A DNA stretch of 56,194 nucleotides from Terrimicrobiaceae bacterium (GCA_036525175.1 DATDAX010000076.1:1-56194); one strand, 5' to 3'. Positions 12,651 through 51,570 are shown, counted from the first letter of the stretch. Translations and numbers: made by a program. The notes: generated by a model not told the origin, from the letters alone.

Positions 12651-13139
12651 TCAGAAAGGTCCGGCAGGCAGGCTCAAGCCCAACACGCCCGTGAACAGGA
12701 AGAAGGTAACCGTGGATAGCGCTGCCGCTATCCCCAAGTCGCGCCACGGCTTCCGACTGCCGAAGCCACGTGCGACCACCACAAACAGCCCGGTGGAGGC
12801 GATGATGAAGCCCGCCCAGCCGATCAACACCATGTGCAGGATCACGCCCGCGCCGATAACAAAAAATGCCACCCAATCCGGGGCGTCATGCCCTTCCTGG
12901 TCGAGCGGCACGTTGCGCCAGCCACCGGACAGGGCATGCCAGCCCAGAACCGCGCCACACAGGGTAAAGCCGACACCGATGATGTATGGAAAGAGCCGCG
13001 GCCCGACCTGCGCGTAGTCCTGGGTCTCCGCGATGCTCTGGGTGTCATATACAACAAGGGAACCGAGGGCGAAGAGCGCAAGGGATATAAGCAGCTCGCC
13101 TGGACGGATCGGCGATCGTTCTGTATTTCGTTCGGGCAT
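12651..13139 (-). CDS. tctB: Tripartite tricarboxylate transporter small subunit TctB
   Basis: Small four-helix membrane protein between tctC and tctA. The ORF extends to 13292, but the ATG at 13139 (MPERNTERSPIRPGELLISL...) gives a TctB-sized product. The start is uncertain. Confidence 0.7.
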   Translation of the reverse strand: MPERNTERSPIRPGELLISLALFALGSLVVYDTQSIAETQDYAQVGPRLFPYIIGVGFTLCGAVLGWHALSGGWRNVPLDQEGHDAPDWVAFFVIGAGVILHMVLIGWAGFIIASTGLFVVVARGFGSRKPWRDLGIAAALSTVTFFLFTGVLGLSLPAGPF

Positions 13140-13361
13140 CTGAGCCTGGCGGCTGACATCTGGATTGGCAGGCGTCGATTCTTCTGAAACGGGGGCAGTG
13201 GAGGAACCGCGGACGGGGAATCTAGATGTACGCATTTGACGCGGGGGTTGTTCATGAAGATCGCCGAAACCCTGCGTTGCCGCTACCGTCAACGCATGGG
13301 ATCGTGGTTCCGAGTGTTAGACTTGGATCGACTCGCGCTGGTAGCGCCTTGGAGCCTCGCG

Positions 13362-13460
13362 CTGGTAGGGCGCGCTGGCTCAGCGCGCCTTCCCTCTCCT
13401 CTCTCTCTCCTCCTCCTCTCTCTCTCCTCCAAGGCGCGCTGAGCCAGCGCGCCCTACCAG
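13362..13460. repeat. Perfect 30-bp inverted repeat enclosing a 39-nt homopyrimidine (mRNA-sense homopurine) loop, between tctC and tctB
   Basis: The left arm ctggtagggcgcgctggctcagcgcgcctt (13362-13391) is the exact reverse complement of the right arm at 13431-13460. The loop at 13392-13430 contains only C and T. Confidence 0.95.
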
Positions 13461-13468
13461 CAGCGGGA

Positions 13469-21852: not shown

Positions 21853-21885
21853 GATCGCAGTCTTTAAAGTCCACCGCGAGCGAGC

Positions 21886-21963
21886 TCCCCTGAAGGAGCG
21901 AGTCAACCGAGAGCGCCGCCCAAAATTAAAAAAATTTCAGCAGCGCTTCACGTTGAGTTTAGC
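21886..21963 (+). promoter_or_regulatory. 78-bp repeated upstream element, copy 1 (22 nt before the glpX start)
   Basis: tcccctgaaggagcgagtcaaccgagagcgccgcccaaaattaaaaaaatttcagcagcgcttcacgttgagtttagc. It differs from the copy at 23434-23511 at 3 of 78 positions. Confidence 0.6.
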
Positions 21964-21985
21964 TTTCTCATGTAACCAACCTCTT

Positions 21986-23047: not shown

Positions 23048-23433
23048 ACTTCCGGCTTCCTTTCATGTTTCTGCGGAAGGCTTTTTTGAAAATTGTATCT
23101 GAGAGGACGCCACTATCATGAATGGCGACTGACCAAGTTCGGCCGTGCAGCCGTGACTGTGAGCACATTTAAGCCAATAACAGCATGCCGACCTATTGAC
23201 CACGACGCCTTCAATTTGGGCCGGCTGCTTTCGGCTGGAAGCCAGCCGAAAGCGTCTCGCTCATGCCTGCCACAGGAAATCGAGTCATCGTCGCGGTCGC
23301 GGTAAATCCAGCAGTCGGGGCAGCCCTGAGCAATCTTGACGGTCGCGCGGCAGAAACGCAGTCTCGCTCTGCGTTGCCATCCATGTAGGACACGTAACTC
23401 GAGCTGCGGAAGGTTGCGTCGTCGCAAGCGAAG

Positions 23434-23511
23434 TCCCCTGAAGGAGCGAGTCAACCGAGAGCGCCGCCCAAAATTAAAAAAAATTCAGCAGCGATTCACG
23501 TTGCGTTTAGC
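23434..23511 (+). promoter_or_regulatory. 78-bp repeated upstream element, copy 2 (46 nt before the thioesterase start)
   Basis: Near-identical to 21886-21963 (3 mismatches, counted by eye). Confidence 0.6.
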
Positions 23512-23557
23512 CTCCCAATGTAATGTGCAGTTGTTCCGGCAACCGCGCCTCTTAACG

Positions 23558-25499: not shown

Positions 25500-26624
25500 A
25501 TGAGTATCCAAAGAAAACTCGACAAAGCACCCCCCTACAAGCTGCTCGCCTGCGACGGCGGCGGAATCCGCGGAACCATCTCCATCGAAATCCTCGCGAA
25601 AATCGAAGACGAGCTCCGTGCCAGCAGCGGAAAGCCCAGTCTCGTGCTCGCCGATTACTTCGATTATGTGGCTGGTACAAGCACCGGCGCTATTATTGCC
25701 ACGCTGGTGGCGCTCGGTTACGACGTCGCCACGATCCGCGACTTTTACCTAAAAAGCGGCGCGGAAATGTTCGAGCCTGCCGCACTTTGGGAACGTCTGC
25801 ACACCAAGTTCGACTCGGACAATCTGTCCCGGATGCTTAAGGAAATCATCGGCGAGCACGAAACCCTCGGCTCGGACAAATTCAAGACACTCCTGATGGT
25901 CGTGCTGCGCAACGCCACCACCGATTCGCCATGGCCGATTTCCAACAATCCCAAGGCCAAATACAACGACCGGGAGACGCGCCGCGACGATAGCAACCTC
26001 AACCTGCCGCTTTGGCAACTCGTCCGCGCTAGCACCGCCGCGCCGACGTTCTTCCCGCCGGAAACAATCCAGGTCGGCACCCAACGCTTCGTCTTCGTCG
26101 ATGGCGGCGTGACGATGTATAACGACCCTGCGTTCCAGCTCTTCCTCATGGCAACGACGGAGCCTTACAAGCTCTGCTGGGAAACGGGCCGCGAAAAGAT
26201 GCTCCTCGTGTCGGTCGGGACCGGTGCGAGCGCCGACGCAAATTCCAAGCTCACGCCGCGAGAGATGAGCCTGCTTTACAATGCGAGCCACATCCCCTCG
26301 GCGCTAATGGCCGCAGCGCTTCACGAGCAGGATTTCTTGTGTCGCACGTTTGGTGACTGCCTGGCCGGTGGCCCGCTGGACCGCGAAATCGGCGACATGA
26401 TCGGCAGAGGCATCCCGGGGCTCGAAAAGCTTTTCACTTACGTTCGCTACAACGCGGATCTTTCGCGCGGAGGGCTCGATGCACTCGGCCTGCAGGGCAT
26501 CAATCCTGAGCATGTCCAACAGATGGATTCTGTGGATCACATCGGCGAGATGCAGCAGGTCGGCCGCGCCGCCGCCGAGCGTTACGTCCATACAAAACTC
26601 CACTTCGCCGCCTTCCCAGCCTAA
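25500..26624 (+). CDS. Patatin-like phospholipase
   Basis: Has the oxyanion motif CDGGGIRG, the nucleophile elbow GTSTG (Ser codon 25680-25682) and the catalytic-dyad Asp in FVDGGVTMYNDP. Confidence 0.9.
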   Translation: MSIQRKLDKAPPYKLLACDGGGIRGTISIEILAKIEDELRASSGKPSLVLADYFDYVAGTSTGAIIATLVALGYDVATIRDFYLKSGAEMFEPAALWERLHTKFDSDNLSRMLKEIIGEHETLGSDKFKTLLMVVLRNATTDSPWPISNNPKAKYNDRETRRDDSNLNLPLWQLVRASTAAPTFFPPETIQVGTQRFVFVDGGVTMYNDPAFQLFLMATTEPYKLCWETGREKMLLVSVGTGASADANSKLTPREMSLLYNASHIPSALMAAALHEQDFLCRTFGDCLAGGPLDREIGDMIGRGIPGLEKLFTYVRYNADLSRGGLDALGLQGINPEHVQQMDSVDHIGEMQQVGRAAAERYVHTKLHFAAFPA

Positions 26625-26631
26625 CTTAGCC

Positions 26632-28707
26632 ATGCCTGCCACAAACACCCTCTGCCGCGCCTTCGTCGTGATGCCATTCGGAAAAAAGGAGGTACCGAAG
26701 GATCTGTTGAAACAGCCAAAGGTCGAAGTGACCTCCGAAGCACTCGCCTTGCAGGAGGCGCTGAAAGTCGATTTCGATGTCCTCTACGAGAAGCTCCTCG
26801 GGCCCGCGCTGCGCGAGGCGGGGTGCGAGCCTTTCCGCGCGACGGACGAGCAAGGCGCGGGCGACATCCGCAAGGACATGTTCTTCGAGCTGGTAACCGC
26901 CGACCTGGTGCTCGCCGACATTTCAATCCTCAATGCCAACGTTTTCTACGAGTTGGGCGTGCGGCATGCCGTCGGTCCACGCGGCGTGATCAGCGTGCAC
27001 GGCGGCTGGGCGAGCCGACCTTTCGACGTGGCACCGGATCGCACCTTCAACTACGACGGGCAACTCTTCATCGCCGACCTCACTCGCGACGCAGCGTGGG
27101 AAGTGCGTGTCTCGAAAGAAGTGAGCAAACTCGGTGCTGTCTTGCGCAGCGCCATTGCCAATGATGAACAGGAGATCGGCAGCCCCGTTTACAGCCTTGT
27201 GGAAGGACTAAAACCCGTCGACTGGAGCGGGATCAGCACTGCGCGGGCAAAATATTTCCAGAGTATCTCCGAAGAATGGCGTCAGCGTGTGAAGGTGGCA
27301 CGCAAAGAGCGCCATCCGGGCGACATCCTCACGCTCGCCGGCGACATGCCTACCCGGCTGCACCGTAAGCAACTGCTCTGGCAATGCGCTCGCGCGCTCG
27401 TCGAGATCCATCGCTTCGAGGCGGCGCGCGGCGTCCTCGATGATCTTCTGGAAATGGACCGCGACAACTTCGAGACGAAATCTCTGTTAGCACTGGTTGA
27501 TAACCGGACCGGCCGTTCAGCCCATGCGGAGGAAAGCCTCGATGCATTCGTCAACGCGCGGCCCGGCGACGGTGAAGCGCAAGGAATGCTCGGGCGCGTT
27601 TACAAAGACCTCTGGCGGGTCGCATGGAAGGACCAACCGACCCTGGAAGAGCGGCAGACGGCGGCGATGGAAAACGCCGTTATCGCCGCCAAAGCGATCG
27701 CCACCTATGAGCGCGCGCTGCGCCATAACTTGAGCAACTACTACAACGGCATCAACGTCGTTACCCTCCAGTCGCTGCTCGATTTCCTTGCCGAAAAGAC
27801 TGGCACGTTTCCCGCCGAGACTGGCATCACCGATCTGCCTGAACTGGTCTCCGTGGTTAGCGTCGCCACGCGGCAAGCGCTGAAAAATCCGGGCGAAGTC
27901 GCCTGGGCCGCGCCGACGCTTGGTGAGCTTGAACTCGTCCGCGGCAACGGTCCCGAATCCTTGCGACGCTATCAACAAGCGGCCAATGCGCCCGGTGTTC
28001 CATATTTCGAGATTGATTCCATGCTCGGTCAGCTCCGGCTGTTCGAGGGGCTTGGCTTCCGGGCAGAGGCTGTGGCACCGGTGATCAAGCTGCTCGAGAA
28101 GAAGCTCGCCCAGCTGGGAAATCCCCTGCCCACCTTCGGCAAAGTGGTCGTATGCAGCGGACACATGATCGACGCGCCCAGCCGCGAGAATCCCCGCTTC
28201 CCAACAAGCAAGGAAAGGCCCGTGCGCGAGAGGATCGCGGCGCAGCTGGCCGCTTGGGGCGTCGGCAAGGGCGACCTCGCCATCTGCGGCGGAGCATGCG
28301 GCAGCGATATCCTCTTCGCCGAGGAATGCCAGCGCCTCGGCGCTTCCGTACGCCTCCTGCTCGCCCTGCCGCGCGCTGAGTTCGTGGCAAAGTCGATCGC
28401 CTTTGCCGGTTACGAGTGGGTACAGCGGTTCGATCAACTTGCCAAAACCTGCGAAGTGGCCGAGCAGACCAGCCGGCTCGGGAATCCACCTGCGGGACTT
28501 GATGTCTTCAGCCGCTGCAATCTCTGGATCCTCAACTCGGCGCGTGTCGAGATTGGGCCCGCCAGTCAGTTATATTCCGTTCTTATCTGGGACGAAAAGC
28601 CGACCGGCGACGGCCCCGGCGGGACCTCCGACTTCGCGACGCGCGTCCGGGAACTCGGCGGAGTCGTTGAGGTCATCAACCCGATGAAATTTCCGGAGCC
28701 GGATTGA
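26632..28707 (+). CDS. Three-domain protein: N-terminal nucleoside-2-deoxyribosyltransferase/TIR-like Rossmann domain, central TPR (DUF4071/ASK1-like) region, C-terminal SLOG/LOG-like Rossmann domain
   Basis: The N-terminus has FVVMPFGKK...DLVLADISILNANVFYELGVRHA. The middle has GMLGRVYKDLW and NYYNGINVVTL. The C-terminus has VVVCSGHMID...LAICGGACGSDILFAEEC...VRLLLALP. The ATG at 26632 lies 7 nt after the patatin stop. Domain names are from memory, not a search. Confidence 0.6.
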   Translation: MPATNTLCRAFVVMPFGKKEVPKDLLKQPKVEVTSEALALQEALKVDFDVLYEKLLGPALREAGCEPFRATDEQGAGDIRKDMFFELVTADLVLADISILNANVFYELGVRHAVGPRGVISVHGGWASRPFDVAPDRTFNYDGQLFIADLTRDAAWEVRVSKEVSKLGAVLRSAIANDEQEIGSPVYSLVEGLKPVDWSGISTARAKYFQSISEEWRQRVKVARKERHPGDILTLAGDMPTRLHRKQLLWQCARALVEIHRFEAARGVLDDLLEMDRDNFETKSLLALVDNRTGRSAHAEESLDAFVNARPGDGEAQGMLGRVYKDLWRVAWKDQPTLEERQTAAMENAVIAAKAIATYERALRHNLSNYYNGINVVTLQSLLDFLAEKTGTFPAETGITDLPELVSVVSVATRQALKNPGEVAWAAPTLGELELVRGNGPESLRRYQQAANAPGVPYFEIDSMLGQLRLFEGLGFRAEAVAPVIKLLEKKLAQLGNPLPTFGKVVVCSGHMIDAPSRENPRFPTSKERPVRERIAAQLAAWGVGKGDLAICGGACGSDILFAEECQRLGASVRLLLALPRAEFVAKSIAFAGYEWVQRFDQLAKTCEVAEQTSRLGNPPAGLDVFSRCNLWILNSARVEIGPASQLYSVLIWDEKPTGDGPGGTSDFATRVRELGGVVEVINPMKFPEPD

Positions 28708-28786: not shown

Positions 28787-31597
28787 TCAATCGTCCGATA
28801 CGCCTTCGCCGGGAGGAAGCTCTGCGAATGTGCGCCGGTAGGGGAGTGTTCCGAAGAAGCGTTTCCATTCGGCGAGTGAGAGATTTCGATTCGCCCGGCG
28901 GGCCGCCCGCCGCTGCCACGTGTCGAGACTGGCATCAAGCAAGAAAAGCCCGGGAGGATTATTGAGACCCACAGCCAGCGTTTTCCCATCCGGGCTGAAG
29001 GCGATCGCATTTACCGTGAAATATTCTCCTTCGGTGAAGGCTGAGACACCCAAGGGTTGACGGCTTTCGGCATCGACGAAGCGCAATGTGCCCCCGAATC
29101 CCGCCATCACGAGAGTCTTGCCGTCGGGGCTAAACGAGAGTCCGGAGACCCTGTTGACAAAGCTCCGGGGTAGTTCGCCACGAGGGCGATGGCTTGCAAC
29201 GTCCCAGAGCAACACGCCGCCTGCGTCATCGCCGGTGCATAGCACCTTACCCGTGGGATCGAAGGTAGCGCTCCAGACAGCGGCGAGATGCCCCGGAAGT
29301 GGAGAGCCCTGAGGCCGGCGGGTGCGCGGATCCCAGAGTCGGACGTTTTTATCATCCCCACCGGAGGCCAGCACCGTTCCGTCGGAGCTGAAGGCGACGC
29401 AGTAAACGCCGCCTTTATGCCCCTCCAATGATTCACCGAGGGGTGACCGCGCTTGTGCGTCCCAGAAACGCAGGGTGCCGTCGCTGCCACCAGAGGCGAG
29501 GAGCTTGCCATCCGGGCTGGAAGCGATGCTCCAGATGTAACTCCCGGCCAGGTGGCCCACGAGAGGTGCGCCGATCGGCTGGCGCGTCACCGCATTCCAA
29601 AGCCGTACCGTGCCGTCCTGGCAGCCCATCGCGAGCACCTTGCTCGCTCCAACGAAAGCGAGGCTTTGGACTCCATCCCAATACTCGAGTGTTCCGAGCT
29701 TTTTGCGCGCCCTCGCATCGAAAATCTCAACGTGTTCGCCGGAGACGGCGAGCAAGGTCCCATCTTTGCTAAAGGCCAAGTGGGAAGTCCGCCCACCAAT
29801 TTGTTCACCCAAGAGAGGGGCAGGTTCGACTTCCCAAAGCCGAATGGTCCCGTCTTTGGCTCCGACGGCGATCTGCCGGCTATCCGGGCTCACCGTGAAG
29901 CTGGCCATCTCACCGACGAAGATCGGCTGCCCGATGAAGGTGGCATGCTCCCAATCGTAGCGATGAATGGCTCCGTCCAGGCCTCCCCAGGAGAGGATCT
30001 TGCCATCGGCGCTAAAAGCGAGATGCAACACCCACCCGGAGCGGCCGACAATAGGCTCGCCGATGGGCTGGCGACGAACAACGTCCCAAAGACGCACAAC
30101 TCCCGTACGATCGCCGGACGCAATGACTTTCCCATCAGGACTGAAGGCGAGCTGCGTGATCCATTCAGTATGCCCAGTAAGTTTCCCAAGTGGTTGGCGC
30201 GTGGCGATTTCCCAGAGCCAAAGTTCCTCGCGAACGTCGAGCGCCAGCAACTTGCCATCCCGACTAAAAGCGACACACGCGGGCTCGCCCGCCCCGAACT
30301 GCGGCTGCCAGGCCGCCCCTAGCCCCAGGATCGGCTCGCCAATGCGTTCTCCAGTAGCGGCATTGCGCAGGGAAAGGTCTACCACATTGCTGACAGCGAG
30401 GGATTTGCTGTCAGGGCTGAAGACGACGGAGGTGACCGTGCCGCCGAAGCGAACGGCCTCCCCACGGAGCCTGCGCGCCGAAACATCCCAGATGCAAAAG
30501 TCGCCGTCCTGAGTGCCCGCAGCCACGCTCGCACCATCCGGACTGAAGCTGAGGCAGCGGACTTCGTTTGAACTGCCCGAATGGCGTTGCTCGAAAACGT
30601 GAAGTGGTGCAGCGACTTGACGCCGTTGCTTCCAGTCCCATAAGCGCACGCTTCCATCGAAACCGCCAGAGACCAGAGTGGACCCATCGGGGCTGAACGC
30701 AATTGAGGTCACCGGCCCCCGATGCCCGTGCAGGAAGGTGGAGAGTCCCGGCTCCATTTGGAGCGCGGAAAGGAGCGTATTCCGCGCCTCGGCGGTATCG
30801 GCAGCACGACACGCCTCGACGCCGAGGAGCAGTGCGAGCGGAAGCTGATCGCGTAGATAGGAGAGGCCAAAGCCAGCCAGCCGTCCGGCGCCTGCGATTC
30901 GCGCCTGCGACTGGGCCTCGTTGCGCTGCGACCAGGCGAGCACCGCCAAAATCAGCGAGACGACCAGGCCCGCCGACACCGCTCCGAGAGTGATCCGCTG
31001 TCTATTAGCAGCAGCTTTGCGGCTGGCGATAATATATCCGGTCTGAAGCGCAGTAGGCTGCCGTTCCTTGTCCGTGCCGGCCTGCGCGAGCCATTGCTCG
31101 GCATCGCGCAGATCGTCTCCACGAAGGACAAAGCTGTTGTTTTTGCCTTTGGCTTCCCATTCGATCGCGCGCGTGAGCAGACGGGTGTGCGCGTGAACCC
31201 ATGCGAGGTCGATATCGAGCGCAGTGATCAGCGTCTCGATCGCCTTGGCGAAATCGTCGGTCTCGCGGCAAAAAATCCAGTTCAGCTTCGCGAGCGCCTC
31301 CGGCACATCAGCGGCATTCACGTCGCGAGCGACGACCGGCACCATCCGCTTGTTGTGCGCCGCGGCGTGCGCGATCTCACGCCCGCAGACAACTGACGCG
31401 ATCGAATCCGGCGTCAGCACAAAAACAAATGTATCAGCCGCTTCGATCGCGCCGTAAATCGCTCTCATGAACTCCTCGGTGGGCCGGATGCCTTCCCAGT
31501 CCACCCATGCCTCGCGACCGCGACGTTTCAGCGCCTCATCCAACTGTTGGACGAACTCCTTGTCCTTGCGCGAGTAGGAAATGAAAACGTCAGCCAC
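28787..31597 (-). CDS. TIR domain - single TM helix - WD40 beta-propeller protein (paralogue A)
   Basis: GTG start. The TIR domain has DVFISYSRKD...FVFVLTPDS..S..CGREI (Glu74 codon 31376-31378). A hydrophobic helix ITLGAVSAGLVVSLILAVLAW lies at about 30932-30994. More than 12 canonical WD40 units follow (GH.G.V.S.AFSPDG..L.SG..DG..RLWD). Confidence 0.9.
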   Translation of the reverse strand: MADVFISYSRKDKEFVQQLDEALKRRGREAWVDWEGIRPTEEFMRAIYGAIEAADTFVFVLTPDSIASVVCGREIAHAAAHNKRMVPVVARDVNAADVPEALAKLNWIFCRETDDFAKAIETLITALDIDLAWVHAHTRLLTRAIEWEAKGKNNSFVLRGDDLRDAEQWLAQAGTDKERQPTALQTGYIIASRKAAANRQRITLGAVSAGLVVSLILAVLAWSQRNEAQSQARIAGAGRLAGFGLSYLRDQLPLALLLGVEACRAADTAEARNTLLSALQMEPGLSTFLHGHRGPVTSIAFSPDGSTLVSGGFDGSVRLWDWKQRRQVAAPLHVFEQRHSGSSNEVRCLSFSPDGASVAAGTQDGDFCIWDVSARRLRGEAVRFGGTVTSVVFSPDSKSLAVSNVVDLSLRNAATGERIGEPILGLGAAWQPQFGAGEPACVAFSRDGKLLALDVREELWLWEIATRQPLGKLTGHTEWITQLAFSPDGKVIASGDRTGVVRLWDVVRRQPIGEPIVGRSGWVLHLAFSADGKILSWGGLDGAIHRYDWEHATFIGQPIFVGEMASFTVSPDSRQIAVGAKDGTIRLWEVEPAPLLGEQIGGRTSHLAFSKDGTLLAVSGEHVEIFDARARKKLGTLEYWDGVQSLAFVGASKVLAMGCQDGTVRLWNAVTRQPIGAPLVGHLAGSYIWSIASSPDGKLLASGGSDGTLRFWDAQARSPLGESLEGHKGGVYCVAFSSDGTVLASGGDDKNVRLWDPRTRRPQGSPLPGHLAAVWSATFDPTGKVLCTGDDAGGVLLWDVASHRPRGELPRSFVNRVSGLSFSPDGKTLVMAGFGGTLRFVDAESRQPLGVSAFTEGEYFTVNAIAFSPDGKTLAVGLNNPPGLFLLDASLDTWQRRAARRANRNLSLAEWKRFFGTLPYRRTFAELPPGEGVSDD

Positions 31598-32011: not shown

Positions 32012-32692
32012 ATGTTCAGCCACGCTTCCAAACTTCCTGCAGTCCTGATCGCGTGCTGTGTGGCCGTCACCCTCGGTGCAGCCGGCGCGTGTGATGGCCC
32101 GCGCAAGGTGCGCGAGGCGACCGTCGCGAAGATCAAGGCATTCATCAACGACCAGCAAATGACAGTGCTGACCTTCGCCGGCTATTCAGGGGCAGAGTAT
32201 GAGGACCCGCAGACGATGTTGGCGCACGCTTCACGCGTCCTCGACGGGCTGGACCCGGCGAAAACATTAATCAATATCGGTGCCACGGAGGTGGGAATCG
32301 GCGCCGTTTACGAGCTCTCAAAGCGAAAGGGATTCACAACCATGGGCATCGTCTCCACCCTTGCCCGCGATGAGCGTGTTCCACTCTCGACGTGCGTCGA
32401 TTATGTGTTCTACGTCAAAGACAGTCACTGGGGCGGAAAGGTTCCCGGAACCGATCATCTTTCGCCCACCTCGGCCGCACTGGTCGAGTGCAGCACGTCT
32501 TTCGTTGCCATTGGCGGAGGCGAAGCCGCCAGGGACGAGATGCTCGCAGCACGTAAGGCTGGCAAGCCTGTTGCCTTCATTCCTGCCGACATGAATCACC
32601 GGATCGCTCGAGAGAAGGCACAGAAAAAAGGCCAGCCCGAACCGACCGACTTTCGAGGTGCCGCACATGGTTCGCTCGCTAAAGGCATCTAG
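32012..32692 (+). CDS. Exported (probable lipoprotein) SLOG/LOG-like Rossmann-fold protein
   Basis: The N-terminus MFSHASKLPAVLIACCVAVTLGAAGAC looks like a signal or lipoprotein leader. The body has LTFAGYSGAEY..., GATEVGIGAVYELSKRKGFTTMGIVS and FVAIGGGEAARDEMLAARKAGKPVAFI, reminiscent of the LOG/TIGR00725 layout. The function call is tentative. Confidence 0.5.
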   Translation: MFSHASKLPAVLIACCVAVTLGAAGACDGPRKVREATVAKIKAFINDQQMTVLTFAGYSGAEYEDPQTMLAHASRVLDGLDPAKTLINIGATEVGIGAVYELSKRKGFTTMGIVSTLARDERVPLSTCVDYVFYVKDSHWGGKVPGTDHLSPTSAALVECSTSFVAIGGGEAARDEMLAARKAGKPVAFIPADMNHRIAREKAQKKGQPEPTDFRGAAHGSLAKGI

Positions 32693-32907: not shown

Positions 32908-35760
32908 TTATTTCTGCAGGCGGGTCTTTTGCGGCATCGTACCTGGACCGTAACGACTCCATTCGTCAGATGTCAGATCGCTCGCCACTTTGGCAGAGGT
33001 CTCGCGGAGGACACCATCAAGAGTGATTGGATGAAGGGTGGGCTCGGGAAAACCGTTCTGCCACCTGTAAGTCAGAATATACCTTCCATCCAGGCTGAAA
33101 CCCGCGAAACGATCACCCCGCGCGACTGGAACTTTGAAGTTTACTCCGAGCGTGTTCGCGTCATAGACGTAGATGACGCTGGGGAATGCGGCAGCTAGGA
33201 GCGTTCCGTCCGGACTAAAACTCAAGAAGTCGTCACGGTCGCCCTCCATGAATCCGCCAAAACCCAGCGGTTCCGATCGGACCGTTGGATTCTTTGCGCC
33301 GATTTTCCAAATCCCAATCATGTTCTCCTGGAGCACCGCGCATCGCCCTTTGTCAGGACTAATCGCGAAGTTCGATCCTTCTGGAATGTCTGACACGGAT
33401 TCGGTCCTCCAATCGAACAGCACGGACTTAAGCGGGACCCCATCCTGGATTTGCTCGGCGATGACGAAGTTGGACCCGGACAGGAACCACAATCGGTTGA
33501 AAGGCTTTACGTTGGGGATCAGCTGCGGGGGTGCCTTATGATCCAGTCGATAGATCTGGGACGAAACCAGCACCCGATTTTCGTCCGGCCCAAACGCCAG
33601 GGGCCCGCCGCCGGGAATCGTGATGTTTCGTTTGGTGGCCATTTCCGTTATTACCCATCCCTTGCGTTGTAAAAGCCGCGCTACAAAGCGGCCGCTCGGT
33701 GACACCACAAGCGCTCCGGCGCCTTCCCCTTTTTCCTCAGCCTGCCACAGGCGTGTTCCACCCGCATCATAGACATTCATCGAGCCGTCTGCTCCATCCA
33801 CCACAACGACACGCGCGTCCACTGGCAGGACCGCAAACTTGCTGGGCAACGTCCAACGGCTCGCCGGGGTAATGGGGACCCATCGTTCCGGGGCGAGCGA
33901 CACAACCTGAATCTTGGCGGGAAGCCGATCCCTGGTCTGGGCTGGGACACGCGAGCTCACGGCCAGGAATCGACCATCGGCACTGAAAGCGGCGCCATTC
34001 ACCGACTGCCTTTTATCGAGTGTGAAGTGGAACACCAAGGCGCTCCGAGTCAGGTCGAAGACCGAAAAGGTCTCCGGGTTTACCGCGGAGTATCCCGCAA
34101 CATACCGGCCAGTTGGACTCACGGCAGGGAGAAGCTGAAAGGTCTCGCCTTGCTTCGATGCGAACGGCAGGTCGAACGAATCCCCACCGGATGTCTTGCG
34201 TAGCTGAGCGCCCCTGACGTACACATCGCCGCCCGCGATGACGCGAGAAGGGTTGGACAAGCTCTCGACAGGCGTGGTGTTAAGCAGGCTGCCATCAGCA
34301 GCGCTTAGAATCGAATGCTGACGAGAACTGATGGCGATCACACACTTGCCATCTCCGCTGAACAAGGCTTCCTCATAATTATCGCTCGCCGGATGCCGAA
34401 CACGCCAGCGAACCGAGCCGTCCGCGACGTTGAAAGCTGTTAAGCCTTCATCGGTTTTCGCGACGACCGTCGCAGCGTCTGGACTGAGCACGACGACGCC
34501 CGCCTCCGACGGGAACATGATGCGCGACCGAACCGTGCCGGCTGTCGGATCGACCGTCCAGATCCCAGCTCGCGAAACCACGAGCAAGTTCCCCTTCAAA
34601 TCGAACGCTGCGATATCGAGATCCTCCGGAAGCGGGACGATTTGTTTGTTTCCGCTCTCGATGTCTAGAACTTCGATCGCAGATCCACCTTTTTGGTAGA
34701 CGACGACACGGTCGCCGGTTGGGCTCATAGCGAGTGTGAAGGCGGATTGATCCGCCTGGACCTCGTGGAGCTGTCGGAGATCGGGCGCTGAAAACACATG
34801 GACATGGCGATCACCGCAGAGCGTAACCAGTCTCCGTGCATCTGGAGTGAACACGATGGCAACTGCGACAGAATCCGTTGCGACATCCGTCAAAATCCTC
34901 GGCATCTGACTGACGGCTGTGTGCCAGGCTGTGTATCCAGCTTCAGTCCACGTCTCTCTGAGCGATTCAGCCGCAAGCAGGCTTCCAATTCGGAGGCCCC
35001 GACTGGGCTCCATGTCTGCGGCCTTGACAGCCTGTCCGGCCAGGAAGCGCGCCGCGGACATCTTGCCTTGCTTGATAGCATCCTGACGCGCAAACCAAGC
35101 GACTACTGATAAAATGACAGCAACGACCAGGCCGAAGCTGAGTGCTCCGAGCGTGATCAACTGCCTTTTAGCGGCGGCCTTGCGGCTGGCGATGATGTAT
35201 TCGGTCTGAAGCGCCGTGGGCTGACGTTCCTTGTCCGTGCCGGCCTCTGCGAGCCATTGCTCGGCATCACGCAGATCGTCTCCGCGAAGGACAAAGCTGT
35301 TGTTTTTGGCTTTGGCCTCCCACTCGACGGCACGCGTGAGGAGGCGCGTGTGAGCCCGGACCCAGTCGATGTCCGTGTCGAGGGCGCTGATCAGCGTCTC
35401 GGTCGCCATTTGAAAATCGTCTGATTCACGAAAAAAGATCCAGTTCAGCTTCGCCAGCGCTTCGGGGACGGCCCCGGCGTTCACCTCGCGTGCAACGATA
35501 GGAATCATCCGTTTGTTCTGCGCCAGGGCATGCGCGATTTCCTTCATGCAAACGACCGATGAGACGGAGTCAGGAGAGAGCACAAAGAGGAACGTGTCTG
35601 TTCCTTCGATCGCGCTGTAAATCGCTCTCATGAACTCCTCGGTCGGCAGAATGCCTTCCCAGTCCACCCAGGCCTCGCGACCGCGGCGTTTCAGCGCCTC
35701 ATCCAACCGTTGGACGAACTCCTTGTCCTTGCGCGAGTAGGAAATGAAAACGTCAGCCAC
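32908..35760 (-). CDS. TIR domain - single TM helix - divergent beta-propeller protein (paralogue B)
   Basis: The first ~220 aa are near-identical to paralogue A (Glu74 codon 35539-35541). The C-terminal ~720 aa have only degenerate propeller blades (FSGDGKCVIA, FSADGRFLAVSS, FSPDGTLLAAA, FSLDGRYILT) and do not align with A. Confidence 0.85.
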   Translation of the reverse strand: MADVFISYSRKDKEFVQRLDEALKRRGREAWVDWEGILPTEEFMRAIYSAIEGTDTFLFVLSPDSVSSVVCMKEIAHALAQNKRMIPIVAREVNAGAVPEALAKLNWIFFRESDDFQMATETLISALDTDIDWVRAHTRLLTRAVEWEAKAKNNSFVLRGDDLRDAEQWLAEAGTDKERQPTALQTEYIIASRKAAAKRQLITLGALSFGLVVAVILSVVAWFARQDAIKQGKMSAARFLAGQAVKAADMEPSRGLRIGSLLAAESLRETWTEAGYTAWHTAVSQMPRILTDVATDSVAVAIVFTPDARRLVTLCGDRHVHVFSAPDLRQLHEVQADQSAFTLAMSPTGDRVVVYQKGGSAIEVLDIESGNKQIVPLPEDLDIAAFDLKGNLLVVSRAGIWTVDPTAGTVRSRIMFPSEAGVVVLSPDAATVVAKTDEGLTAFNVADGSVRWRVRHPASDNYEEALFSGDGKCVIAISSRQHSILSAADGSLLNTTPVESLSNPSRVIAGGDVYVRGAQLRKTSGGDSFDLPFASKQGETFQLLPAVSPTGRYVAGYSAVNPETFSVFDLTRSALVFHFTLDKRQSVNGAAFSADGRFLAVSSRVPAQTRDRLPAKIQVVSLAPERWVPITPASRWTLPSKFAVLPVDARVVVVDGADGSMNVYDAGGTRLWQAEEKGEGAGALVVSPSGRFVARLLQRKGWVITEMATKRNITIPGGGPLAFGPDENRVLVSSQIYRLDHKAPPQLIPNVKPFNRLWFLSGSNFVIAEQIQDGVPLKSVLFDWRTESVSDIPEGSNFAISPDKGRCAVLQENMIGIWKIGAKNPTVRSEPLGFGGFMEGDRDDFLSFSPDGTLLAAAFPSVIYVYDANTLGVNFKVPVARGDRFAGFSLDGRYILTYRWQNGFPEPTLHPITLDGVLRETSAKVASDLTSDEWSRYGPGTMPQKTRLQK

Positions 35761-36164: not shown

Positions 36165-36956
36165 TTACGCAGCAGCTCCCCGAATGAGGCGTTCCAACCT
36201 TGCCGTGAGTTTCTCAAAATGTGTTCCAGACCAGTAAATCCGACCGCAGCCGCAGCACCGGCGGAAATTATCGTAAAAGCGCAAAGTGAGCGGTTCGCCA
36301 GAAAGCCGGGTGAGCACTTCTGACTTCGGCACGGATAGCAGCAATGAGTTGCAGCGGAGACATCGCTGATAGGGCGCAAGGTCGCCGGACTCGGGAGCGA
36401 GGCCGAAACGTCGGAGCACCTCGCGCGCTTGTTCCTCCGCATCCACGCTGCGAGGGCTGTAACCGTGCCGGACGATGGAATGCATCAGCAGGCGGCGATC
36501 GCGAGTCAGCAGCGCGCGATCTTCCGCGACCATGATTTCGAGTAACCGACGATCGTCGGCGTCGCGCTCATAGGCAGTATCAATCCCAAGCAGCCGTAGG
36601 TTGCGCGCGAGTTTGCCGAGGTGACCATCGGCCACGAACCGACACCAATGCTTCGTCTGCAACCTCGGTGCCCGCGGCAGAACCTCTGCTGGTGCAGGAA
36701 CGGCGAAGACTTCCACCCGCCCAGGAGCCTGCACCTGCCAGGCAAAGGTGACCGCTGTCCGCTCGCCGGTGCAAAGATCCGTCGCAACGATCAGATCCAC
36801 CTCCGGGTGCGGCACCCCACACGCCTCAATCACATCCTTGATCGCCGTCTTTTCCCACAACGCACGCAAGAGGCAATTCTCGCTGCGCAAGCCCCGCACC
36901 CCACGACGTAGGAAAAACCCGAGTTCAGCGGAAAAGCTGAGTTCCACCTCAAACAT
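36165..36956 (-). CDS. Mut7-C RNase domain protein (PIN-like nuclease with N-terminal ubiquitin-like domain and C-terminal zinc ribbon)
   Basis: Contains RFVADGHLGKLARNLRLLGIDT...LLTRDRRLL and a terminal C.RCN...CCGCGRIYW.G.H, which matches the PF01927-type layout as I recall it. Confidence 0.75.
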   Translation of the reverse strand: MFEVELSFSAELGFFLRRGVRGLRSENCLLRALWEKTAIKDVIEACGVPHPEVDLIVATDLCTGERTAVTFAWQVQAPGRVEVFAVPAPAEVLPRAPRLQTKHWCRFVADGHLGKLARNLRLLGIDTAYERDADDRRLLEIMVAEDRALLTRDRRLLMHSIVRHGYSPRSVDAEEQAREVLRRFGLAPESGDLAPYQRCLRCNSLLLSVPKSEVLTRLSGEPLTLRFYDNFRRCCGCGRIYWSGTHFEKLTARLERLIRGAAA

Positions 36957-44746: not shown

Positions 44747-47700
44747 ATGAGTAACGTCCTTCTGGTTCCGATGCACCTGGATGCCCTCTGTCTCAAAACT
44801 GATCTGTCCGTTGTCGAGGCAAAGGTCGATTTTTCCCGGATGCCCTACTGGGATGGGACACGCGAAATCAACCACGATGTCGCCAACATCAGTGAAGAAC
44901 TCCTCGCTCGCCCCTTTGAAGACCGTGGGCTGCAGCTCAAGGCGGGTGTTCACCTCCATTGGGCGCTGCCGGATGCCCTAACCAAAGGCGTGATTGCGGA
45001 AAACTGCACGAGCTTCTCGGCTGTCCCCAACCGCTGGCTGGTCACCAGAAGCAGGCTAGATGAAGATGGGAAGGAGCGTCTGGAGCGCCAGTGGATTGTT
45101 GAGAGCGATTATCTCTATCCTGATGACGTAGGCGCGCTGTCAGGCAGTATCGCGATTCCTTTTCCTGCCGAGAAAGACCACCCGCCGTTCCGCTACCTGG
45201 GGCGCAAAATGTCTTTCAACGCCTGGACAGAAGCCACCGCAGAGGGCGCGACAGGGAAATATCTCGGCGCGTTGGGGTATCAACTGACGGCCCTTGGATA
45301 TCAGCATAAAGCACTGCATACCATGGCGACGGCGCCAGGTCGCGGCTATGCTGAGCCCACTTTTGCGGCCTTTTACCCCAATTGTCAGAGTGTCTTCGGC
45401 TTTCATGATGCCGATCCCCCGGCAACGTTACGGGGCGTACAGTACGACGTCATGGGTTGGTACAGCGATCCCACCCAAGACTGTCTGCGAGCCATAGAAA
45501 CTCTGATACAGGAGCGCGCAAAGATCACGAAGGAAGCCCTCACCCTCAAGGCAGCCCTCCAGGAAGTCTATCAATGGGACATGACGGCGGACGCCCAAGC
45601 GCATATCATTCCGGACTCAACGGTGTGTTATGCCCGCCTCACCATCGAGACGGGCACCCCGCCCTCTTGTGTACGTCAGGACAAACCCGTGACGATTGCG
45701 GTAGGGAATACGAGCACCCAGGCGCTGTCAGCCTATATGGCCCATACGCTGGCCCCAGCGCTGAAGATGAGCCCGTCACGTCTCGAGGAACAGTTGGAAG
45801 CGCTCCATCTCGCCTCGCGGTTAGGCGCCAGGAAATTGGACATCGGACCAAAATTCGAGGAAGCGCGACACGAACGAGGGTTTACGGCGGTGCCGGCCGG
45901 CACCCTATGGACCATTCGTCAGGTAAGCGCCAGCCCCCACCCCCCCGATGCCACCGGAGACACCCCGCAAGAAACGCTTCCCGACGAGCTGGCACACTCG
46001 CTGAACGCCCTGAATCTTGTGCAGATGGCCTATGACCAGGCCGGCCACGATCTGGAGTCGATGCAGAAGCAACTCTTTGCCGACTGGTATAAATACATGC
46101 TGTGTGCCTATCCTCCCGATGACACCAGGGATGATTATCCGGACATTGATGAGGTGCGCTATTTCATCGAAAAAAATGATCTCGTGCCGATCACGCGCCA
46201 ACAGGGGAAACGCCAGGTGTTGCGATCGCAATGCCGGCGACTGCATGCACAGGTCGCGGCAAAGGTCCAAGAGTATCAGGAGCGGACGAAGAAACCCTAT
46301 GCATTGCAACCACGCCCGGCACCCCGCTACTGGCGACCGCATGAACCCGTGCTGCTTATCGTGGATGAGGAGATACCGCCGACCACACGCCATGGGCAGG
46401 ACGGGCGCTTGCATCCGGAGGGCTTGCTCACATGTCACGTGCAGTCCGTCAACGCCGCTGACATCAAAACACAGCTTGCTGCTCTCCGGGAGACCATAGG
46501 CACACTCCCGCTGAAGTTGGGAGAGGATGCCATCGGCTGGCACACCTGGACGGAGCAACCCTGGCATCCCTTTATCCTGGAATGGCGTGTGGAGCTAAGT
46601 CCCCTGGACGAGAAGAACAACCTGGACGCAAAGAAGCGAGCGTATGCCCCGGACTTCATTACCAGCAGTTATCAGTTGGAGGAAGACGCCGTCGACCTCG
46701 TTCTCAAGCCGGGCAAGGCGGCCGTCGAAAAGGCCGCGAGTACGTTCACCGGCAGCAGCCTGCTCACGCCACATGCCAAATTCCAGTTACAGAAGCAAAT
46801 CAAAGCGTTTTTGGCCCGAACAGGACGACAGGATGATGACCCGGTCACGCAAGCGATCCAGAAAGTGTCCCAAAAGCTCGACAGCCCCAGCTTCCACGCG
46901 GTCGCGCAATCACTGAATGGCTTCAACGAAGCCCTGCTGATGCACAAGCAAACCTTGCAATTGCCCATTGCCGACCCCTTGGGGTTTGAGGAGGCGCAGG
47001 ATTTTACCAAGGCAGTACACGATGCTGTAGGGCCAAGCAATCGCAGCGCCCCCCAACCGCAAAACGATTTCCACCCGATCCGCACCGGAGTCCTGAAGAT
47101 TCATGCGCTACGTGTAGTCGATACCTTCGGCCGCGTGCAAAATCTGACCTTGCACGACGACAAGGTGATGGCCACCGAGATCATGACCACCCCCGCGAAT
47201 CCGCATTTGGTCTTGTTGCCACCGCGTCTGGCGCAACCGGCTCGCCTCAACTTCCGCTGGCTGGCGGCAGACCGCGGGGCTACCTCAGCCGACGATGAGC
47301 CGGAGATGAATGCCCATCCGGCGACCACCCCAGTGTGTGGCTGGTTGCTGCCGAACAATCTCGACAACAGCCTGATGGTGTACGACAACACCGGTCAGGC
47401 ATTAGGTTCCATAAGCGCGCGCGAGCGCAGATGGATACCGGCGCCGGGGACGTCGATCCTGCCGAATGCGCAGTGGAACGTGCACCTTAGGACGCTCGTC
47501 ACCCATGTGCTCCGCATGCCCGACCCATTTTTAGAGGATTTTCTGACCGGCATCGAGGTCGCGCTCGAACGCATCGACCCGGAAAACTTCGCTCAACACG
47601 AGGCCCTGGCGCTGCTCATGGGCCGGCCGATGGCGGTCGTCCGCGCGGTGGTCAACCTGGAATTGCGCGGCCAACCAGCCATTAATCAGCACTGGAACGT

Positions 47701-48526
47701 GTTTCGGACCGATATGGAGCGCGATCTGCAAGGCGAACTGACACAGCCTGGCGGCGGGCGGAACCAACCGGCCCAACGAGAAACCGATGCTGTCGGCGGG
47801 GTACGCTTTCCCATCCGCCTCGGCGACGATCGGCAGTTAAATGATGGGCTGGTCGGTTATTGGAAAGAGCAGTGGTCCAAAGATAGTGAGACGTACTCGT
47901 ATGAGAAGAACCGCTTCTATGTGCATGCGTGCGACAGTGCCGAGGTGTGCAAGATGGACCTCAGCAAACTGCCGCTAACCGCCAAGCAGAAGGACGATGT
48001 TGCTGATTTGTTGCGCCACGGACCGATGGTCAAGAAACACGACTTCGTGGCACGCCTTGCCGAGGGGGAGAGCATATGGACCTTGCTTTGTGAGAAGAAT
48101 GTGATCCGCGAAGTCGAGCGCAACCGGTACATCCACTACGCCGCGGATACGCCCGACCTCGCCCAGGCCATTGCCGACCCGCCGCAAAAGCTCACGATGC
48201 TGGTGGACCCGCGCGGTGTCGTGCATGCGACATGTGGCATTCTGCCCACGAAAGCGCTTGGCATTCCGCCCGATCAATATGCCAAGGCTTTACAGACCCT
48301 AGCCATCACCTTTCTCTCCGCTCCCATCCTCACTGGCGTGGGGGATAAGGTGCGCCTGCCGGTGCCGACGGAACCGGGTTATGTCTGGTCCTGGCTTGAA
48401 AAGCAACAGGGCGCCTGGTCCGAAAGCGCGCCCATCGGGCCGATGCCACTGGAGGCCACGTTTGCCGAAGCCCAGGCGATACGGGAAGGCTGGTTGAAAT
48501 TGACCAAAACACGGGAGGAAATATGA
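44747..48526 (+). CDS. 1259-aa orphan protein (no family recognised)
   Basis: Long uninterrupted ORF with protein-like composition and no signal peptide. Its stop overlaps the next gene's start (ATATGA at 48521-48526). Confidence 0.85.
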   Translation: MSNVLLVPMHLDALCLKTDLSVVEAKVDFSRMPYWDGTREINHDVANISEELLARPFEDRGLQLKAGVHLHWALPDALTKGVIAENCTSFSAVPNRWLVTRSRLDEDGKERLERQWIVESDYLYPDDVGALSGSIAIPFPAEKDHPPFRYLGRKMSFNAWTEATAEGATGKYLGALGYQLTALGYQHKALHTMATAPGRGYAEPTFAAFYPNCQSVFGFHDADPPATLRGVQYDVMGWYSDPTQDCLRAIETLIQERAKITKEALTLKAALQEVYQWDMTADAQAHIIPDSTVCYARLTIETGTPPSCVRQDKPVTIAVGNTSTQALSAYMAHTLAPALKMSPSRLEEQLEALHLASRLGARKLDIGPKFEEARHERGFTAVPAGTLWTIRQVSASPHPPDATGDTPQETLPDELAHSLNALNLVQMAYDQAGHDLESMQKQLFADWYKYMLCAYPPDDTRDDYPDIDEVRYFIEKNDLVPITRQQGKRQVLRSQCRRLHAQVAAKVQEYQERTKKPYALQPRPAPRYWRPHEPVLLIVDEEIPPTTRHGQDGRLHPEGLLTCHVQSVNAADIKTQLAALRETIGTLPLKLGEDAIGWHTWTEQPWHPFILEWRVELSPLDEKNNLDAKKRAYAPDFITSSYQLEEDAVDLVLKPGKAAVEKAASTFTGSSLLTPHAKFQLQKQIKAFLARTGRQDDDPVTQAIQKVSQKLDSPSFHAVAQSLNGFNEALLMHKQTLQLPIADPLGFEEAQDFTKAVHDAVGPSNRSAPQPQNDFHPIRTGVLKIHALRVVDTFGRVQNLTLHDDKVMATEIMTTPANPHLVLLPPRLAQPARLNFRWLAADRGATSADDEPEMNAHPATTPVCGWLLPNNLDNSLMVYDNTGQALGSISARERRWIPAPGTSILPNAQWNVHLRTLVTHVLRMPDPFLEDFLTGIEVALERIDPENFAQHEALALLMGRPMAVVRAVVNLELRGQPAINQHWNVFRTDMERDLQGELTQPGGGRNQPAQRETDAVGGVRFPIRLGDDRQLNDGLVGYWKEQWSKDSETYSYEKNRFYVHACDSAEVCKMDLSKLPLTAKQKDDVADLLRHGPMVKKHDFVARLAEGESIWTLLCEKNVIREVERNRYIHYAADTPDLAQAIADPPQKLTMLVDPRGVVHATCGILPTKALGIPPDQYAKALQTLAITFLSAPILTGVGDKVRLPVPTEPGYVWSWLEKQQGAWSESAPIGPMPLEATFAEAQAIREGWLKLTKTREEI

Positions 48527-51500: not shown

Positions 51501-51570
51501 CCTGGTGAAGAAATCGCACAATGAAGTGCGTCTCCTAAGCTTTTACTGCTCCGGCAACGATAATATATGA
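48523..51570 (+). CDS. LamG (concanavalin-A-like lectin) domain protein with C-terminal fibre-like G-x-[VL]-G-I-G-T repeats
   Basis: The N-terminus has FDG....I.IP......GDVTVEAWV...WYHLAGV..G..GSLYLHD...GRIAHIRVYNGARSQAEIEQ (Laminin_G_3 pattern). The C-terminal half has GHVGIGTPTPKSTLSV, GTLGIGTPQPQAKLEI, GNVGIGTTDPKAALQI and GNVGIGTPLPEKRLEV. Confidence 0.82.
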   Translation: MSTELVLHLELNGFEVIDKEEIVKDVSRKHHVGTVHGRVDIVADDTFGACASFDGNASNHISIPSDNSLKNSGDVTVEAWVYVSQEASGYFRVVGRGGYPQDYSLWCVQGGGWLFQRYASIPPGSPPPPTASAAEWLNWTMNPQVVNASCQMDSPTRALNTWYHLAGVIEGTKGSLYLHDLQGKCIGYKEVHDMPSGPAFDTDGPLTIGYGPGLDFPAHTGRIAHIRVYNGARSQAEIEQGIARDRLALVPFRKSHPIDFHLYDDDDQAVLYISDDPAGHNLHLELHNTSAQVIQLHNGHGAVASEANHHFAVRFRPGTLSDSTLKALVNPQERGKILQQTEQWEVYFPPTLPAANEAAALYLLYKGPAKTIQPDERRTLTLQRMSAAPGSGARGTQVELLPHQLTAAGGDATPITGSRTQYVHITNQRGHKNIPLHVWFEGGNTVVNDGVSSTPLTLCIGNASADRDITLDATSQFLISFDVGDGADAAWTMTPHESEVHVRYEQTELPSKLAGQGISRQWSLKFPLGKVLPKRGSAGTGPLKITIEGIRTSPQASGHANLYVQYDHIPGYQDGRFILTVEKSPLVYDKKGNVAIGKPIQKVDIPKVDVAGTVVADRLSVSRDNAHRGGLFFAGAGDFNHALYNNHSNLDGEGTWDGAKWNTFKGLNIRVGNRNDKPSTLRSALLIDATGHVGIGTPTPKSTLSVAGGLAVGATYAETNAAPANSLIVQGTLGIGTPQPQAKLEIAGEATGNTPLLIVRKGAANYLTISNDGNVGIGTTDPKAALQIGNFESEDTYLKVAAGRLHRAGIQFECGQHNEYFIEFESGGPFRPGLQFTKHRPDYPNVPRVDFFLDGETGNVGIGTPLPEKRLEVLAGELRVTARHNNPTADIGAFYDPRKARGIGIGYNQIASIGSDLSQDILMVPKGQGIVRIKGPLEVNGTFRVNGLPIFDYGKRMNQDEQKKYARMLKEPTYQPGTFILFVRDDKSDDICCLVKKSHNEVRLLSFYCSGNDNI

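Follow-up and report, generated by a model that had tools for sequence, protein, structure and literature searches.

We analysed a stretch of 56,194 nucleotides (nt) from a Terrimicrobiaceae bacterium (GCA_036525175.1 DATDAX010000076.1:1-56194; hereafter the window, with positions counted from its first letter). On its plus strand, a gene for a patatin-like phospholipase is directly followed by a gene for a three-domain protein of 691 residues, which we refer to as the hub. The pair and the domains of the hub are located as follows.

25500-26624, plus strand: patatin-like phospholipase of 374 residues, predicted membrane-lytic effector; stop codon TAA at 26622-26624.

26625-26631, plus strand: intergenic spacer of 7 nt (cttagcc) from the patatin stop to the hub start, read off the sequence.

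26632-28707, plus strand: hub open reading frame (ORF) of 691 residues, three-domain partner of the patatin; ATG at 26632, TGA at 28705-28707.

26632-27231, plus strand: hub residues 1-200, predicted Rossmann-like N-glycosidase domain (TIR-DrHyd class, DNPH1/MilB-like).

27241-28116, plus strand: hub residues ~204-495, all-helical TPR-S region of the ASK1 MAP3K_TRAF_bd type, putative sensor/scaffold; the Pfam match covers 27415-27768.

28123-28707, plus strand: hub residues 498-691 plus stop codon, YpsA-like SLOG-fold domain according to AlphaFold2 and Foldseek.

Both genes are real and intact. Read directly from the coordinates, the patatin gene ends 7 nt before the 691-residue ORF, as the initial annotation of the window had proposed, and this spacing implies co-transcription. 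The patatin motifs named there were all found in the translation, namely the oxyanion motif GGGxR/KG (GGGIRG, residues 20-25), GxSxG (G-T-S61-T-G, residues 59-63) and DGG/A (D201-G-G, residues 201-203). The same is true of the hub motifs FVVMPFG, ADISILNANVFYELG, GRVYKDLW, YYNGIN and CGGACGSDILFAEE, which correspond to invariant or nearly invariant columns in a 37-sequence alignment of the hub family. The codons of the catalytic patatin residues Ser61 and Asp201 lie at 25680-25682 and 26100-26102, respectively. A longer, 742-residue form of the hub starting at 26479 was rejected because it finds no support in homologue lengths (about 690 residues) or in the alignments, which start at residue 7-9. 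The GC content shows no anomaly at the patatin-hub locus, and a promoter and terminator scan from 24.9 to 32.1 kb returned the same counts as shuffled controls.

The lipase was assigned to the Pfam family Patatin with 96.3 bits (E = 3.4e-27, cut-off 27.7 bits). It also matched PDLC00758 (5.9e-43), the PADLOC model for phospholipase effectors of the cyclic oligonucleotide-based antiphage signalling system (CBASS), and reached 115.8 bits with the NCBIfam equivalog CBASS_lipase (NF041079), under the 200-bit cut-off of that model. Among sequences in the PDB, potato patatin (3e-20) and CapV-type lipases (3e-17) were matched. Since the protein matches the PADLOC effector models yet misses the NF041079 cut-off, its sequence points to a subfamily that is related to, but distinct from, the CBASS phospholipase effectors.

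For the hub, the full-length AlphaFold2 model (mean predicted local distance difference test score, pLDDT, 84.7) comprises an alpha/beta part at residues ~1-200, a helical stretch at 204-495 with pLDDT > 90 and a second alpha/beta part at ~505-685. Only the middle part matches Pfam, where TPR-S (PF20308) was found with 57.3 bits (cut-off 27.6, 2.5e-15, residues 262-379). This family reportedly goes back to Burroughs and Aravind (J Bacteriol 2020). The match to MAP3K_TRAF_bd, formerly DUF4071, was sub-threshold in the hub (0.0038) and reached 2.3e-41 in a short-form homologue, in agreement with the DUF4071/ASK1-type TPRs that had been suspected in this region; plasmid-borne homologues are named 'TRAFs-binding domain-containing protein' at NCBI. 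No housekeeping family was matched by the hub.

The family is large. A word-indexed search returned more than 2,000 full-length homologues, and among clusters formed at 50% identity 9,883 representatives were found at E < 1e-3 and 331 at E < 1e-30. TPR-S is annotated in all 120 hub homologues listed. The fused three-domain form dominates, with all three domains present in 104 of the 150 best cluster representatives, while further domains are fused directly to the hub in some relatives (SLATT_1, TIR plus AAA_35, nSTAND1, ParA-like and FHA). In contigs representing one genome per species, 592 hub relatives were confirmed. The nearest one in the genome collection belongs to a metagenome-assembled genome of Terrimicrobiaceae (Verrucomicrobiota; 84% identity), and others occur in Acidobacteriota, Chloroflexota, Cyanobacteriota, Nitrospirota and beta-, gamma- and deltaproteobacteria. 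Short hub forms are present on plasmids, and phage genomes yielded nothing beyond short N-domain-like matches.

Neither the whole hub nor profiles of its C- and N-domains produced meaningful matches in sequence and profile searches of the PDB. A Foldseek search of the PDB with the full-length model returned generic TPR proteins only (OGT, SPY and IFIT) and was thus silent on the terminal domains, so that the C-domain was modelled separately. This model was of high confidence (pLDDT 94.9), and its top match was YpsA (2nx2; E = 7.9e-5, TM-scores 0.62/0.67, probability 1.0). The other best fold matches were all SLOG proteins as well, namely DprA, the Moco carrier protein, TM1055, ShosA and LOG, which bears out the SLOG-like C-terminus of the initial annotation. 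Weak Pfam matches among 35 C-domains comprised the YpsA-related SLOG family YAcAr (5/35) and DprA (2/35), and the motifs GGAxGxD and GDGPGGT are conserved. YpsA-like SLOG domains sense isomers of cyclic ADP-ribose (cADPR) in Thoeris (PMC9503650). From its modelled fold, the C-domain is predicted to have a nucleotide or a derivative of ADP-ribose (ADPR) as its ligand or substrate.

The N-domain was less readily classified. Its model has an alternating beta/alpha pattern, and N101, N103 and E107 (codon 26950-26952) are invariant in the hub family. All 28 members examined match the PADLOC CBASS effector model PDLC00733, labelled 'TIR' (best 8e-11), whereas a marginal match to Pfam TIR_2 occurred in just two of the 28; weak Pfam matches were to Nuc_deoxyrib_tr and TIR_2. 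When the N-domain was aligned with hhalign to the single sequence of human DNPH1 (checked against PDB 4p5e), a probability of 40% and an E value of 2.9e-4 were obtained for the segment ADLVLADISILNANVFYELG / ADVVVAEVTQPSLGVGYELG. In this alignment E107 falls on the catalytic Glu of DNPH1, the residue changed to Gln in PDB 8qhq. The spacing N101-x-N103-x3-E107 further equals N80-P-N82-x3-E86 of BcTpr from Bacillus cereus, whose N-domain has been modelled as MilB-like and whose N82A and E86A variants lost both NADase activity and defence (bioRxiv 10.1101/2023.05.26.542521). The same preprint reports that this MilB-like domain depletes NAD+ and makes a cADPR isomer.

A nucleoside deoxyribosyltransferase (NDT)/TIR-like N-terminus had been anticipated by the initial annotation, and the PDLC00733 matches and the position of E107 agree with it. 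A classical TIR domain or a type-II NDT was rejected and a DNPH1/MilB-like domain favoured because hhalign found next to nothing in common with either: the probability was 0.4% for a TIR_2 profile built from 19 domains (18 from hub-neighbour loci and the window's own), and Lactobacillus NDT gave no match. The hub's own SLOG domain was not matched either. We consider the evidence moderate that the N-domain is an N-glycosidase of the DrHyd class (DNPH1/MilB-like) with E107 as the predicted catalytic residue.

We then looked at the genomic surroundings of hub genes in 80 genome loci (designated by L numbers below), using crude gene calls; the hub gene was callable in 69 of them, and neighbours were classified within three genes. 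A patatin gene lay within this distance in 19 of the 69 loci and further away in two more. An effector with two transmembrane (TM) helices of the SLATT_1/DUF4231 type adjoined the hub or was fused to it in 27, a TIR protein was found within three genes in 17, and a SLOG protein of the LSDAT_prok family in three. The hub-neighbour patatins form one orthologous subfamily, 39-77% identical to the protein of the window (E values from 1e-61 to 1e-193), and GGGxRG, GTSTG and DGG are kept in nearly all of them. The reverse test started from 80 metagenome loci of this patatin subfamily, 30 of which had at least 1.5 kb on both sides; a hub homologue was present in 27 of these 30. The linkage of hub and patatin is therefore specific in both directions and holds across at least five phyla, in line with the coupling of the two genes that had been proposed. 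Patatin and SLATT are interchangeable membrane effectors of the hub.

The arrangement varies between lineages. In some close hub relatives the patatin gene is nearby on the opposite strand. Many patatin-subfamily loci encode a short hub (N-domain plus TPR-S) with a separate LSDAT_prok SLOG gene between hub and patatin, as in L103 (1799-9125), where the order is nSTAND1-TPR, ORF324, hub (470 residues), LSDAT_prok (245 residues) and patatin (376 residues). The separate SLOG gene in L103 means that the triad of hub, SLOG and patatin is conserved, fused or not. Plasmid copies are arranged hub-DUF4231-TIR, for example in L167 (Rhizobium plasmid pCC511_4, 4986-8115), where the short hub is followed by DUF4231 and TIR genes; the flanks of L167 contain further TIR genes, a 7-cyano-7-deazaguanine synthase and an HhH-GPD glycosylase. 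Anaerolineales and related Chloroflexota (L045, L047, L048, L050, L055, L057, L063 and L068) share a conserved arrangement of four genes encoding a Peptidase_C39-like/SH3 protein, a TIR-TM-WD40 protein, a SLATT_1 plus DUF4231 protein of ~445 residues and the hub, which is the SLATT-type counterpart of the patatin-type locus in the window. In L002, L010, L015 and L017, the patatins are 76-77% identical to that of the window and the hubs just ~50-53%, which hints at unequal constraint or at exchange between lineages.

Three further genes of interest lie directly downstream of the pair in the window.

28787-31597, minus strand: TIR-TM-WD40 protein 1 of 936 residues (Pfam TIR_2 and WD40), convergent with the hub.

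32012-32692, plus strand: ORF226, 226 residues, signal-peptide- or lipoprotein-like N-terminus and a possible SLOG-like domain.

32908-35760, minus strand: TIR-TM-beta-propeller protein 2 of 950 residues, a paralogue of protein 1.

The gene for protein 1 converges with the hub gene at a distance of 79 nt. The protein starts with a TIR_2 domain (residues 4-124, Pfam 1.6e-25), followed by a single strongly hydrophobic helix (202-220) that has basic residues before it and WD40 propellers (6.8e-90) after it. Protein 2 has a TIR_2 domain (2.3e-26) and a TM helix at the same position, 202-220. The two proteins match each other in BLASTP with 6e-127, identities being found mostly in the first ~240 residues: TIR domain, linker and TM helix are nearly identical, whereas the propellers are strongly diverged. 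In sequence terms, this is a pattern of sensor diversification on a topology resembling an inverted Toll-like receptor (TLR), with the propellers probably extracytoplasmic. In protein 1, E74 of the TIR domain aligns with the Glu of the TLR motif WCxYEL, a position that we take to be the NADase catalytic position of TIR domains.

Orthologues of the TIR-linker-TM part (E values from 1e-59 to 1e-116) were detected in 15 hub loci. In 14 of these they lie within three genes of the hub (L002, L015, L017, L030, L033, L044, L047, L048, L050, L054, L055, L057, L063 and L068), and in L037 further off. The position of the TM helix is conserved among them, two tandem copies are also present in L017, and in L002, L015 and L017 the order hub-SLATT-patatin-TIR-WD40 runs on one strand. 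The TIR-TM-WD40 proteins are probable threat sensors that also generate, or regulate, an NAD+-derived signal. Accordingly, the two-gene module put forward by the initial annotation stands as far as the pair is concerned and has to be extended beyond two genes, given the two TIR-TM-WD40 genes directly downstream. Its statement that no signal generator is encoded has to be given up, since orthologues of these genes are operonic with the hub elsewhere and the N-domain of BcTpr is reported to make a cADPR isomer.

Whether ORF226 is part of the system is uncertain. Its hydrophobic segment (residues 8-26) gives it a lipobox-like or signal-peptide-like N-terminus, its Pfam matches to SLOG families are weak (LDcluster4 0.011, LSDAT_prok 0.015), and L022 holds a strong orthologue (7.6e-70; 12775-13461) at a distance of two genes from its hub. 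ORF226 may thus encode a SLOG-like component that is exported.

Taken together, and partly by analogy with BcTpr, we consider it rather probable (about 0.6) that the locus is a chromosomal anti-invader module of the abortive-infection type, centred on TPR-S and signalling by NAD+-derived nucleotides rather than by products of a cGAS/DncV-like nucleotidyltransferase (CD-NTase). The single-pass TIR-TM-WD40 proteins, with their shared cytoplasmic TIR and linker and their diverged propellers, would sense a cue. Upon stimulation, their TIR domains would switch on the hub, either through an ADPR-derived signal or by direct contact, and this signal would be read within the hub by SLOG, TPR-S or both. 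The N-glycosidase domain (E107) might then cleave NAD+, leading to depletion and/or to a cADPR-type isomer as in BcTpr. Either this product or the patatin's release from TPR-S, acting as a scaffold, could activate the CapV-like patatin, and the active lipase would degrade membrane phospholipids, so that the infected cell is killed or arrested. In its most specific form, this would be a cyclase-free relay, in which TIR receptors with extracytoplasmic propellers pass an ADPR-derived signal to the hub and a converted or amplified product gates the CapV-like patatin. We regard this complete chain of events as unlikely; if true, it would be the first patatin effector under an NAD+-derived messenger and the first bacterial pathway with transmembrane TIR receptors.

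Several observations weigh against an NAD+-signalling defence module. None of patatin, SLATT, TIR or LSDAT was found near the hub in 27 of the 69 loci, and close relatives of the hub (75-83% identity; P0002, P0009 and P0010) often lack a recognized partner. Since partnerless hubs include its closest relatives, the hub can do without partners, and the signal may not be aimed at the patatin, which would then be an accessory. The TIR-WD40 genes of the window are on the strand opposite to the hub, and such a gene is present at only about a quarter of the hub loci. No Pfam family matched the C-terminal 160 residues of the patatin, and we know of no ligand for its subfamily. For the N-domain, the evidence for a DrHyd-class enzyme is moderate, and the failed alignments with TIR_2 and NDT count against that assignment too, as does the lack of any match between the N-domain profile and PDB sequence profiles. 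PADLOC and NCBIfam assign the locus to no named system. Finally, experiments exist as a precedent only for a shorter relative paired with TIR, and they come from a preprint without peer review (bioRxiv 10.1101/2023.05.26.542521).

Some of these points lead to a different mechanism, in which the hub is a self-contained sensor and effector that kills by NAD+ depletion, patatin or SLATT is recruited by contact with TPR-S without any messenger reaching the lipase, and the TIR proteins regulate only, which is the role proposed for the catalytically inactive BcTir. Solo hubs are the commonest arrangement, both here and in the preprint survey (29/78), and P0002, P0009 and P0010 are solo. NAD+ is depleted by BcTpr on its own, and BcTir, although inactive, is required (bioRxiv 10.1101/2023.05.26.542521). 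In addition, TPR arrays typically bind proteins, and some hubs carry an effector as a direct fusion. However, the patatin resembles the nucleotide-gated CapV lipases, the TIR domains of the window keep the conserved Glu, and SLATT is by its very name SMODS- and SLOG-associating, that is, typically messenger-gated. We therefore take a self-contained hub to be a serious possibility, albeit a doubtful one.

The pair might also serve a purpose other than immunity. A nucleotide-sensing hub could control the lipase in a module for stress response or membrane remodelling, by analogy with YpsA (cell division) and ASK1 (stress). The flanks of the locus are of a housekeeping nature (glpX, a thioesterase and a two-component system, with aconitase and isocitrate dehydrogenase further off), the GC content is inconspicuous as described above, and solo hubs occur among housekeeping genes such as gyrase. 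Yet the family is patchily distributed over distant phyla and conjugative plasmids, its lethal effectors patatin and SLATT are interchangeable, and the sensor propellers of the TIR paralogues have diversified. The hub also associates with TIR proteins, STAND NTPases and toxin-antitoxin genes, and with BcTir/BcTpr there is an experimental anti-phage precedent. A non-immune role consequently appears improbable to us. That independent defence genes merely cluster by coincidence in a small defence island, as might be suggested by the Mut7-C RNase nearby and by TIR genes that converge on the patatin-hub pair or lie apart from it, is very improbable in view of the 7-nt spacer, the reciprocal, subfamily-specific synteny in at least five phyla and the TIR-TM-WD40 orthologues that other genomes encode in the same direction as hub, SLATT and patatin.

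The remaining window is ordinary chromosome, including genes for aconitase, isocitrate dehydrogenase, TctA, glpX and a two-component system. Just past the second TIR gene, at 36165-36956 (minus strand), a conflict-type Mut7-C (PIN-like) RNase with an N-terminal ubiquitin-like Ub-Mut7C domain is encoded; no homologue of it was seen in the other hub loci. A direct repeat of ~100 nt is located on the plus strand at 21875-21975 and 23423-23523, each copy directly preceding a gene: the glpX-type fructose-bisphosphatase in one case and, in the other, the coding region of a 4HBT thioesterase. The copies are 90% identical with an identical core of 48 nt, they are the only two in the window and without a match in Rfam, and they inflate the listed ORF starts. 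The repeat might serve both genes as a leader or as a regulatory element. Between 51000 and 54000 the GC content drops to 0.48-0.51 (~0.58 elsewhere); this stretch contains a class-3 lipase ORF of 553 residues (51767-53428), is preceded by ORFs at 44747-48526 (1,259 residues, no Pfam match) and 48523-51570 (Laminin_G_3), and may have been acquired horizontally.

How does the locus compare with known systems? The patatin is nearest to CBASS phospholipase models and CapV structures, and the N-domain of the hub is homologous to a CBASS 'TIR' effector model. Nevertheless, no CD-NTase (SMODS) cyclase and no Cap2 or Cap3 was seen when Pfam was run on all larger ORFs between 18.4 and 40.5 kb and on most of those elsewhere in the window. 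CBASS was ruled out on this ground and by the lipase score under the equivalog cut-off, and the initial annotation was right in not regarding the locus as a standard CBASS.

With Thoeris, the locus shares the combination of TIR, a YpsA-like SLOG protein and an NAD+-consuming or membrane effector. In Thoeris, the TIR protein ThsB makes a cADPR isomer that is sensed by the SLOG-bearing ThsA, whereupon an NADase or TM effector is activated. The locus differs in having no SIR2 or Macro ThsA, and its SLOG domain is part of one protein with TPR-S and a DrHyd-class domain. The TIR protein of the window matched the Thoeris ThsB/ThcB models with 2e-9, its score for ThcB4 (36.8 bits) being far under the cut-off of 220. 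Thoeris was ruled out by the lack of ThsA and by this TIR score. The ASK1 (MAP3K5) signalosome contains the same TPR family as the centre of the hub, whereas the hub has no kinase and its flanks are bacterial nucleotide-processing domains. The central TPR-S domain is the bacterial counterpart of the ASK1 TPR and is relevant to the roots that stress and immune signalling of animals have in prokaryotes.

The closest resemblance is to TPR-S-centred systems. According to the summary given in a preprint, Burroughs and Aravind predicted in 2020 such systems with NAD+-derived signals, patatin-linked ones included (bioRxiv 10.1101/2023.05.26.542521). Like the locus, these have an N-terminal glycosidase and TPR-S as their core and TIR, YpsA/LSDAT SLOG, patatin and SLATT as variable parts; as in the hub family, cores without partners are frequent. 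Among 78 core Tpr operons, the preprint lists 29 solo, 28 Tir-Tpr, 5 YpsA-Tpr and 4 Patatin-Tpr ones, besides LSDAT and calcineurin versions, and it reports that BcTir/BcTpr protects E. coli against T phages (bioRxiv 10.1101/2023.05.26.542521, a 2023 preprint). BcTpr shares with the hub the VMPF and NxN...E motifs (catalytic N82 and E86 in BcTpr), followed by TPR-S, and both have adjacent TIR genes. Unlike the hub, it measures 415 residues and has neither a SLOG domain nor a lipase partner. The TIR protein BcTir is small and soluble and has Lys instead of the catalytic Glu, whereas the TIR proteins of the window are membrane-anchored, carry WD40 propellers at a length of 936-950 residues and keep the Glu. 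A SLATT or LSDAT_prok gene is absent from the window, and we found no experimental work in the literature on a patatin-linked or SLOG-fused version of TPR-S; two eLife papers by Kaur et al. are silent on TPR-S.

TPR-S systems are widespread, yet no named system in PADLOC or NCBIfam covers them, and experiments on them are confined to one preprint, which deals with a minimal variant. In the window, a compact, complete-looking version is present, with a lipase, a three-domain hub and two sensor TIR proteins. Three leads emerge from our survey, namely a dedicated patatin subfamily travelling with the hub, the exchange of patatin for SLATT and a SLOG domain that is either fused or separate, and they make the identity of the messenger and the gating of the lipase directly testable. 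With the TPR-S core, the N-glycosidase domain and the context of TIR, SLOG and patatin all found, we place the locus among the TPR-S-centred systems. That is, it is not a new kind of system, but belongs, as a fairly complete example, to a class that has been predicted and hardly tested so far.

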